This document shows, in pieces, positions 55,301 to 58,300 of a DNA stretch of 64,000 nucleotides (the stretch's first letter is position 1; the number at the start of each line of letters is the position of its first letter). The position numbers were made by a program. The stretch is from Escherichia coli (GTDB taxonomy: Bacteria > Pseudomonadota > Gammaproteobacteria > Enterobacterales > Enterobacteriaceae), in assembly GCF_965641715.1 (NCBI RefSeq), contig NZ_OZ282453.1. The stretch is one strand, 5' to 3'.

Positions 55301-58300
55301 CCTGGCGTTCGTCTCGGACGTTTTTGCCGCTTTCGCGGAATTGCCTGCCGCTGTTGCCGAGGAAGCTGCGCTACTGGCGCTCGAGGATGCGTTCGTTTCT
55401 GATGATTTTGCCGCCTCTTTTGAAGCCGCCGCATCCCGGGCTGAGGTGGCAGCTTCTGACGCTTTCGTAGTCGCGGTGGATGCAGAAGTGGCTGCTGATT
55501 GTTGTGACGCTGCCGCATTCGTTTCTGACGTTTTCGCGGCACTGGCACTGGTAGCTGCCGCGCTTTTTGAGGACTCTGCAGCGGCAGCACTTTTTGATGC
55601 TTCAGTGGCCTTTGTTGATGCCGTTCCTGCGCTGGAAGTCGCTGACTGAGCCGACGACGCGGCCTGTCCGGCTGACGTGCTGGCTGCGCGTGCTGAGTCC
55701 GCAGCATCAGTCGCATGGGTTGCCGCCTCACGGGCTGATGTGCTGGCATCACTGGCTGACTTCTTCGCGGCTGCCGTGTTCTGTGCCACCACGGACGCGT
55801 TACGCGCCACCTCTTCCACCATCAGCTCAAAACGGCGCAGTGCCTCCGGACGGGCATCATCCTCCGTCATGGCACCGAGAAAATCATTCAGCGTACCGGG
55901 TCGGGAATCTTCATACACGGTGATGGTCCCGGCATGTGACGGCGGGAATCCTTCCACCAACAGAATAACGCTGTACTGACCGTACTCAACGTCCATGCTG
56001 TAACGCCCGGCTTCATCCGGATTTTCTGAGGCCAGCGTGTTCACCACCACCGTGGTACTGTTACGTTTTGCTTTCAGCTGGATTGTGCAGTTCTGTACCG
56101 GTTTTCCTGTGCCGTCTTTCAGTACACCTGAAATCTTTACTGCCATATTCACCCCACAAAAAAGCCCGCCTGAACCGGCGGGCTGTCATAACACTGTGTT
56201 ACCTGGCTAATCAGAATTTATAACCGACACCCACGATGAAACCGTCAGTGCGCCAGTCACCACTGCCGGAGCCTTCATAAGCGACATCAATGGCCACGGA
56301 TTCGGTCGGGTTAAACTGCACGCCAGCCCCCCACGCCAGAGACGTGTTGCTGTGGCGACCGTCATCACTTCCGGTCAGCACGTCGTGCGTTTTCCCCTTG
56401 TTATCAGTTACGCGGAGATAATCCCCGGAAAAAGTCGACACACGGCTGTAAGCCACACCCGCCATCGCATACGCGCTGAACCATTCATTCACGCGCACAG
56501 ACGGCCCCGCCATCACGCTGAACCAGCGGTTACGCACGGAATCTTCATGCCAGCGGGTATCGCTGTAACGGGTCAGCTGGCGATTCTTGTCTCCTGCATA
56601 GCTGAACGACGTCACCATCCCCAGTGTGTCCGTAAACTCATAACGGTATTTCACGTTAATCCCGTTCAGATCATCGCTGCCGGGGACGTTCGTCGAGGCA
56701 TGAAGATAGCCCGCGCTCAGCGTGGACTGATGTTCAGACGCCCATGCAGGCGCACAGGATGCGGCCAGACAAATGGCTGCGGACAAAATGGCGGCATAAA
56801 GTTTACGCATAATTACCTCTCGCTTTTCTGCAATAAAAAAGGCACCATTTCTGGTGCCCTTATCTGGGTTATAAATATTTCAACGGATACTGATACCGGA
56901 AGCCGCTTTTTTGGTCACTATCACCGTACAGTCTGTGATGTTACCTGCACCCTGATTGCCTTTCTGGAAAATCCTGAACTCCAGGGTGACGTTCCCACCA
57001 CCACTCGGCATATCAATAACCGCGCTGTAACTCCCGGGAACTGCCCCTCTGGTTTCTCTGGATGCGATTAAGACACCGTTTTTGCGAACTTCAAAACCAT
57101 AACCCGTGTACCTTGTACCTCCCGGGTTATTACCGCTCCCCGGATTGTCATACGCCACACCGTTAAAAATAATGGGCGGAATAATGATTTGACGGTCAAA
57201 GTTATGATCATCGCTGATGGTGACGGTAACCGTCCCGTCGGGTGTTTCCGTGTTCCCCCACGTACCAGCCCTTTTCGGGAATGGTCTGGATACCGCTTTA
57301 ACGAAGTCCCCCCTGACCTGGTTCGCCTCCAGCATGCCCTTAATCGTACAGTTCTCATTTACCGTGACGTTGTTGAGCGTTCCGGCGTTCGCGTTCACGT
57401 TACCGCTGATATCCGCATTTCTCGCCGTCAGCCGACCGTCAGGTGTCAGGGAAAATGCCGGTGGATATCCACCGCTGGTAATGGTGGGAGCCGTCAGATA
57501 TTTCAGGAACACTTCATTCATGAATATCTGATCACCCTGACCAACAAACATCGGCTTTGTGTTGCCATTTGCAGGATTAATCATCGCAATCCTGTCTGCC
57601 GCCAGCAGCACCTGACTCTGCATGCCGTCGGGGGTGTTCTCAATACCGGCACCGATACCCGCGATATAAAGGCGTCCGTCCTGCATCTGCTGCAGCTTCA
57701 CAGCCCACATGCTGTTCAGGTTATTACTTGTATCAACCTGAACCTGCTGTATCTGCTGAATTGCTGCACTCTGGTCTTCCAGTTTCTTATTGACGGTCTG
57801 TGTGATTTCATTGCTGACATCCGTAATGGACGTCCTGATTTCAGCCAGGTCAGGCGCAAGCTGACCGTTATCAATCTGCGTCCACAGCTCCTGAGCCAGA
57901 TGGGTTTTCCCTATCTCGCCTTTGAAAAAATCCAGATAGCCGGATGCGTCATCACTCGGCTGACCAACAGCCTCCACGAATGCCGATTTGCCAACGGTGT
58001 TCACACTGCGAACGTAAAAATAATAATTATGGCCCGGTTTGATATTGATACTGGCGGCTATCCAGTACAGCGCCGTGCCAAGATAGCGTGCTGTGGTTTC
58101 AACCTGCCTGATATCCGCAATCCGCTTTTCCGAGAACCAGAACTCAAACTGTACCGTCGGATCATAAACGGCAAGATGCGGCGTTGCGGTTATCTGAAAA
58201 TAGCCCGGCGTCAGCTCAATCCGCGACGGTGCTGCCGGTGCGGCAATCCGGAACGATACCGACGCCGGATCGCCCTGCTGCCCCCAGGCATTTGCCGCCC

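Follow-up and report, generated by a model that had tools for sequence, protein, structure and literature searches.

A phage 434-type lom allele as an optional cassette between J and stf of a lambdoid prophage in Escherichia coli

The lom gene is a textbook accessory gene of phage lambda, and its presence in a prophage of Escherichia coli raises the question of whether it is cargo in its own right, separately terminated and serving the lysogen, or one more late gene of the tail operon. We addressed this question within a 64,000-nucleotide stretch of E. coli DNA (contig NZ_OZ282453.1), referred to here as the window. The distal tail genes of a lambdoid prophage lie on its minus strand and are read in the order J, lom, stf. 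A preliminary description had placed an Ail/Lom-family gene between J and stf, at 56155-56860; the ORF order and a full-length match of the gene product to PF06316 bear this out, and those limits are right to within a few bases (Table 1). The flanking genes are readily identified. J possesses six J-specific Pfam domains, including Ig_GpJ_C, by Pfam search, and matches lambda gpJ in the PDB (8iyk, E=0). In Stf, residues 3-136 correspond to Pfam phage_tail_N, the prophage tail-fibre N-terminal domain, and residues 1-94 match the tail fibre 9e7m (E 9e-52), while the 5' part of the gene has about 90% nucleotide identity to lambda. The end of the prophage beyond stf is eroded, tfa being reduced to a fragment between stf and potB. 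The annotation of a close relative lists the stf homologue as a pseudogene.

Table 1. Coordinates of the features of the J-lom-stf region within the window
Feature	Position	Strand	Description
J	56880..60377	-	Tail tip attachment / host specificity protein; 1165-aa ORF
T1 hairpin + T6	56835..56861	-	AAGGGCACC-AGAAAT-GGTGCCTTT; 19 nt past the J stop; hairpin 56861..56838, T-run 56840..56835 (coding strand)
lom cassette (RBS + lom + T2)	56159..56831	-	Segment that comes and goes; ~673 nt, by comparison with lom-less J-T1-stf junctions
lom ribosome-binding site	56816..56821	-	GAGAGG, 5 nt 5' of the ATG; read from the sequence
lom	56211..56810	-	Ail/Lom-family 8-stranded outer-membrane beta-barrel precursor (predicted); 199-aa ORF, PF06316
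Palindrome	56189..56201	.	TAACACAGTGTTA; 13 nt, perfect; lom 3' untranslated region; read from the sequence
T2 hairpin + T6	56158..56184	-	AGCCCGCC-GGTTCA-GGCGGGCT; 26 nt past the lom stop; hairpin 56184..56163, T-run 56163..56158 (coding strand)
stf	53750..56146	-	Side tail fibre; 798 aa, counted from the ATG that matches lambda/434 Stf

Comparison with known phages identifies the gene as a lom of the phage 434 type, an allele of the classical lambda gene in its classical position. The 851-nt stretch from the end of J to the start of stf is 96-97% identical at the nucleotide level to phages 434, phi458, mEp460 and Perceval, and equally to dozens of Stx1a and Stx2c phages. The lom of phage 434 (OL657226.1, 18988-19587) has the same length of 199 aa and the same gene order, with few point differences, and the 434 record annotates, at the same places, a terminator, a ribosome-binding site, an 'Ail/PagC/OmpX porin', a second terminator and a second ribosome-binding site. 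Lambda lom itself (J02459 18965-19585; P03701; PDB 9wso chain C) shares the J-stf position, the family and the fold, but the two proteins are only 45% identical, and lambda Lom comprises 206 residues against 199, with a longer first surface loop. Similarity to lambda is distributed as a mosaic, with 30-60% identity over the J C-terminal domain, T1 and the initial ~85% of lom, and about 90-100% from about 56300 onwards, where the rest of lom is followed by T2 and stf. The mosaic junction thus falls near 56300, inside lom, and the last ~90 nt of the gene, T2 and the start of stf are nearly identical in lambda and the window. At the T1 site, lambda instead features the hairpin CGTCCG-GGAA-CGGGCG followed by TTTTATT, which occupies the same position but is unrelated in sequence.

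To define what comes and goes at this site, we aligned the window with two lom-less junctions, one from an IMG/VR locus (L158) and one from E. coli AS19. The resulting cassette is flanked on both sides by C-TTTTTT, and its edges are ambiguous by a few T residues. Among the 112 IMG/VR loci that have the window's stf start and sufficient upstream sequence, lom lies directly upstream of that start in 110. One of the two exceptions is L158, where J and T1 are followed at once by stf, exactly as in E. coli AS19; the other is L120, again without lom, where another gene and then T2 precede stf. Of 5,426 complete E. coli genomes, 3,862 (~70%) carry the cassette together with its two flanks, often in several copies, with a median of two cassette places per genome and a maximum of 14 among genomes with any query match. 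The lom-less junction, covered over at least 80% of its length, occurs in 1,133 of the 5,426; each of the lom-less matches that we inspected is one unbroken piece, but the search merges pieces separated by as much as 650 nt, so a small number of the 1,133 may run across a truncated lom copy. These lom-less junctions sustain the earlier proposal that lom is cargo at the J-stf position. There is no compositional signature of horizontal transfer when lom is compared with its neighbors: its G+C content of 0.565 equals that of J (0.566; stf, 0.545), so composition gives no sign of foreign origin. Two further IMG/VR loci (L032 and L203) were considered as a source for the natural left edge of the cassette, and were rejected because an IS66-family transposase sits between T1 and the lom ribosome-binding site.

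The two hairpins of the region differ in their relation to this cassette. T1 has a stem of six core G-C/A-U pairs, or 10 counting the flanking A-U pairs, and a 6-nt loop. Across the IMG/VR loci, the hairpin occurs in nine sequence variants, in which two of the six core pairs switch on both sides (G-C to A-U and C-G to U-A, or the reverse). Pairing is maintained in 98% of cells, as compared with 30-61% in slid registers, and the covariation score was attained by none of 500 shuffles. The T-run is retained in all variants, and the T-run together with the 24 nt that follow, up to the lom ATG, is invariant among 434-type loci. The GAGAGG ribosome-binding site is likewise unchanged in all 434-type variants, and is retained in lambda. 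The exact T1-flank variant of the window is rare among the IMG/VR loci, being shared with L034 and L159. Because T1 also stands at the J-stf junctions of L158 and E. coli AS19, it is not specific to lom. The evidence suggests that T1 belongs to the J-stf junction, whether lom is present or absent, and that it is under structural selection.

T2 is the stronger hairpin, with a stem of eight pairs (seven of them G-C), a 6-nt loop and a folding energy of -16 kcal/mol. It ends 11 nt 5' of the stf ATG, which places the stf ribosome-binding region directly after its T-run. T2 is nearly invariant across ~80 loci and lambda, and this near-absence of variation makes it uninformative for covariation. Of the two hairpins, only T2 travels with lom. 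The initial characterization of lom as a separately terminated cargo gene must accordingly be divided: lom is optional cargo accompanied by T2, but T1 is not its own terminator. Between lom and T2, the 3' untranslated region also contains a short palindrome that is identical in lambda and disrupted in two IMG/VR variants; it possibly reflects chance. An Rfam search of positions 53000-58000 at E<=1 returned only sub-threshold matches of chance level; in the intergenic regions flanking lom the only one was a 21.7-bit Trp_leader match over T2, also sub-threshold. The small RNA 24B_1 is encoded between lom and vb_24B_43 in a short-tailed Stx phage, and its authors state that the lambda-type region lacks it (PMC4426718). 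It was rejected as a counterpart here: its region in phi24B spans 428 nt, while the window has 64 nt past lom.

If lom serves the lysogen, it should be expressed there, yet a promoter for this is not apparent. A consensus promoter scan gave no minus-strand match near lom, and a sigma-70 position weight matrix, itself approximate and built from consensus frequencies, found nothing above chance in the 600 nt upstream. The best site by this matrix scores 8.05 bits and lies 359 nt upstream, within J, and on that strand the window contains 149 others that equal or exceed it. A visual search for PhoP boxes and sigma-E-like motifs gave isolated half-sites only. With 24 nt between the T1 T-run and the lom ATG, and no promoter above chance further upstream, autonomous prophage expression is not evident from the sequence. 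Moreover, the cassette contributes only ~21 nt 5' of the ATG, with no recognisable promoter and no room for one, and the case for prophage expression comes from publications on lambda and phi24B. To our knowledge, the promoter behind the often-quoted lysogen expression of lom has never been located.

In lambda, lom is named alongside cI, rexAB and bor among the genes expressed in lysogens (PMC7067206), reviews describe it as expressed from the prophage (PMC7067206, PMC3594210), and its product is counted among those of morons (PMC3594210). PMC3594210 also reports better adhesion to human epithelial cells with lambda Lom. For phi24B, RNA-seq of lysogens found lom expression to be constitutive and uncoupled from induction (PMC4651098). 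Plaque formation does not require lom (PMC10695390). A microarray study left lom undetected in a lambda lysogen, and its authors describe the promoter as little known (PMC2147009). In the literature that we searched, the adhesion tests of Lom concern lambda Lom only, a protein with 45% identity to the window allele. The earlier suggestion that lom is expressed in lysogens and linked to adhesion is thus upheld in part: both properties are published for lambda lom, and expression for phi24B lom, but no promoter is detectable in the window.

Transcription of the region can be framed by what is known of lambda, where late transcription starts at pR' and Q renders the polymerase resistant to terminators. 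In lytic growth, RNA polymerase that started at the late promoter and was modified by Q would pass both T1 and T2, such that J, lom and stf would be co-transcribed. In the repressed prophage, which has no Q, T1 would protect lom and stf against stray transcription arriving from upstream, and T2 would halt any lom transcript ahead of stf. Following the literature, Lom would be made at some level in lysogens, enter the outer membrane, and could raise adhesion to epithelial cells; lysogen-made Lom with this effect on adhesion would qualify lom as a lysogenic-conversion gene of the moron type. We consider it probable that the 434-type lom is an optional cassette of this kind, inserted just downstream of T1 and encoding an outer-membrane barrel, with its role in lysogenic conversion drawn from published work. 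The route of lysogen expression may be less direct. It is possible, if somewhat unlikely, that lom is expressed from a non-consensus or activator-dependent promoter overlapping T1, by regulated read-through of T1, or in an induced subpopulation only. Were it restricted to an induced subpopulation, Lom would act chiefly in the lytic cycle, and lysogenic conversion would not be its main role.

A rival reading treats lom as a promoterless late-operon gene, expressed mainly during lytic growth through Q-dependent read-through of T1, and attributes the lysogen signal to spontaneous induction or leak; Lom would then benefit the phage or the lysing cell, and not the stable lysogen. Several features of the locus agree with it. 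The gene is co-oriented with J and stf and embedded between them, T1 ends so close to the ATG that the cassette has no room for a promoter, no upstream site resembles one beyond chance, and lysogen arrays gave no lom signal (PMC2147009). Nevertheless, it sits poorly with the constitutive expression of phi24B lom by RNA-seq, albeit in another genomic context (PMC4651098), with the prophage expression of lambda lom that reviews report (PMC7067206, PMC3594210), and with the dispensability of lom for plaques (PMC10695390). On balance, we regard a purely late-operon lom as improbable, and favor the optional cassette with a lysogenic-conversion role.

The scheme favored here also presupposes that T1 and T2 act as terminators. 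They are the top two sites of a terminator consensus scan, both on the coding strand, with one in each intergenic gap. Each comprises a G+C-rich stem-loop just past a stop codon, with six T residues immediately after. Under a stricter definition (7 or more stem pairs, of which 4 or more are G-C, and 5 or more T within the 7 nt past the stem), the 64-kb window contains 12 sites, against 1.5 +/- 1.5 in composition-preserving shuffles, an enrichment of ~8-fold. The prophage part holds just two of these 12, namely T1 and T2. The phage 434 record OL657226 lists both as terminators, and our literature search found no description of either as a terminator. The hairpins could instead be RNA-stability or processing elements, forming protective stem-loops at the 3' ends of the J and lom messages, or mere chance palindromes. 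Termination at T1 and T2 is itself predicted from sequence, and the 69-nt stretch around T2 folds barely better than its shuffles (z = -1.3), which leaves such readings some ground. They are nonetheless very improbable given the stem and T-run architecture downstream of both stops, the enrichment over shuffles, the compensatory changes that maintain T1 pairing alongside a T-run present in all variants, and the non-homologous hairpin with a T-run that lambda has at the T1 site; moreover, roles in termination and in RNA stability are mutually compatible. That clear intrinsic terminators follow both J and lom, as originally noted, is therefore credible, since T1 covaries and the 434 record annotates both.

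The product of the cassette has every sequence and fold feature of the Ail/Lom family. Residues 1-199 of Lom align with positions 1-199 of the Pfam profile Ail_Lom (PF06316; E 2.4e-119), with a score of 396.7 bits against a curated cut-off of 23, and the protein matches PHROG 108 'Lom outer membrane protein' at E 2.5e-109. Its best match in the PDB is lambda Lom (9wso_C, E 4e-49), with OmpX and Ail next. Sequence matching was also applied to the partner of Lom in entry 9wso; J, the Stf N-terminus and the C-terminal part of lambda Stf were each ruled out. A signal peptide is predicted, from the sequence, at about residues 1-24, with an initial MRK, a hydrophobic core, and APAWA at the end, ahead of SEHQ. 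The C-terminal GVGYKF, whose terminal Phe is that of an outer-membrane beta-signal, is invariant across 18 homologues. The AlphaFold2 model (pLDDT 79.6) features an N-terminal helix followed by eight strands, and Foldseek searches with this model returned Ail (3qra/3qrc) and OmpX (1qj9) as the best matches. Lom is thus predicted, from sequence and model together, to be a Sec-exported 8-stranded outer-membrane beta-barrel. The positions that vary between alleles are concentrated in the signal peptide and in the first two predicted surface-loop regions. The median dN/dS of lom, computed against 128 distinct alleles of 199 codons, is 0.17, which indicates a gene under purifying selection. The eroded prophage end, with its tfa fragment between stf and potB, and the annotated pseudogene status of the stf homologue in a close relative could suggest that lom is a decaying remnant without current function in a defective prophage, but this is exceedingly unlikely for an intact, full-length ORF with signal peptide, ribosome-binding site and C-terminal Phe all present and a dN/dS of about 0.17 over 128 alleles.

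The relatives of Lom outside phages raise the further question of how much of their function it shares. Ail of Yersinia, Rck and PagC of Salmonella and OmpX of E. coli have the same 8-stranded beta-barrel; the Foldseek matches to Ail and OmpX reach E 7e-12 to 3e-11, with TM-scores of 0.80-0.82 on the target, and their PDB sequences match Lom at E about 1e-18. These proteins nevertheless share only ~30% identity with Lom, and are encoded by chromosomal or plasmid genes rather than carried as cargo of a phage tail operon. Serum resistance is a property of the relatives Rck and Ail, and of lambda Bor. Lom scores 114.5 bits against the NCBIfam equivalog Rck ('resistance to complement killing'), whose cut-off is 258, and 98.6 bits against the OmpX equivalog, whose cut-off is 176. 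Since both scores fall far below the cut-offs, neither serum resistance nor invasion can be transferred to Lom by homology, and the serum resistance first suggested for it is neither documented nor inferable.

Morons, as defined for HK97 and HK022 (e.g. HK97 gene 15), are usually described as having, among other features, their own promoter and a deviating G+C content. Like morons, and like lambda bor, lom is an additional gene that separates two direct neighbors of related phages. It brings a terminator of its own, T2, within the cassette, is non-essential for phage growth, and is reportedly expressed from the prophage; unlike morons, it has no recognisable promoter of its own and no deviation in G+C. 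Overall, lom resembles a moron in three respects: it is optional, it carries a terminator, and the literature describes it as expressed from the prophage. The lom of the window is an ordinary and already known gene, and the importance of the locus beyond correct annotation is small. The analysis nonetheless yields three by-products: a promoter for lysogen expression of lom is invisible in the sequence, the limits of the cassette that is gained or lost are now precise, and T1 appears to be tied to the J-stf junction, where it is probably maintained by structural selection.

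Two of the IMG/VR loci compared (L107 and L172) carry a variant of T1, the terminator-like hairpin after J, in which the loop is inverted from AGAAAT to ATTTCT on a self-complementary GGCGCC stem; in effect, the entire hairpin is thus inverted. In two others (L032 and L203), an inserted IS66-family transposase gene separates the lom ribosome-binding site from T1, so that this gene takes the place of T1 as the upstream neighbor of lom. On the other side of the gene, a 13-nt perfect palindrome, TAACACAGTGTTA, lies between the lom stop codon and T2, the terminator-like hairpin after lom. 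The same sequence is present in lambda and is disrupted in two IMG/VR variants, and there is thus no evidence that it is under constraint.

Several long, overlapping ORFs occur on both strands at 54900-55750, within the Ala/Ser-rich repetitive part of stf, and are most likely artefacts of its composition (G+C approximately 0.6). The stf gene itself carries a pseudogene annotation in one close relative. Beyond its stop codon, only a tail-fibre-assembly (tfa) fragment of approximately 90 nt precedes potB, whose 3' end is directly adjoined by the tail end of the prophage (53317-53750), such that potAB is split from potCD. At the same place, the related genomes UMNK88 and ATCC 43886 feature approximately 2 kb of additional sequence, with a methyltransferase gene and two tfa genes. 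An Rfam match to IS009 also falls in the tfa-remnant region; at 46 bits (E 1.7e-8), it is sub-threshold, the gathering score being 117.

Elsewhere in the window, a 107-aa ORF of low G+C just downstream of icd is flanked by the two copies of a 43-nt direct repeat (86% identical, spaced by 860 nt), each of which contains a terminator-like hairpin. An e14-type prophage at icd is absent from the window.

Features of the lom flanks, stf, the potB junction and the icd region
Feature	Position	Strand	Remark
43-nt direct repeat, first copy	39644-39686		near icd
43-nt direct repeat, second copy	40504-40546		near icd
potB	52453-53316		
IS009 match	53588-53658	-	Rfam, sub-threshold
ORF, 249 aa	54900..55649	+	inside stf repetitive part
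ORF, 179 aa	55213..55752	-	inside stf repetitive part
Palindrome, 13 nt	56189-56201		3' of lom

In a 2026 copy of the PDB, full-length lambda Lom is present as chain C of the multi-chain entry 9wso, which may report an interaction of Lom beyond the literature cited on this protein. Comparison of the window with lambda places a mosaic junction within lom, at approximately 56300. Some Lom proteins (P0064, P0067 and P0098) are composite, with a lambda-like first loop and a remainder resembling that of phage 434. The C-terminal receptor-binding domain of J, T1 and approximately 85% of lom together form a single block divergent from lambda (56811-57290 and into lom), and the allele of lom therefore moves together with the end of J that sets host range.
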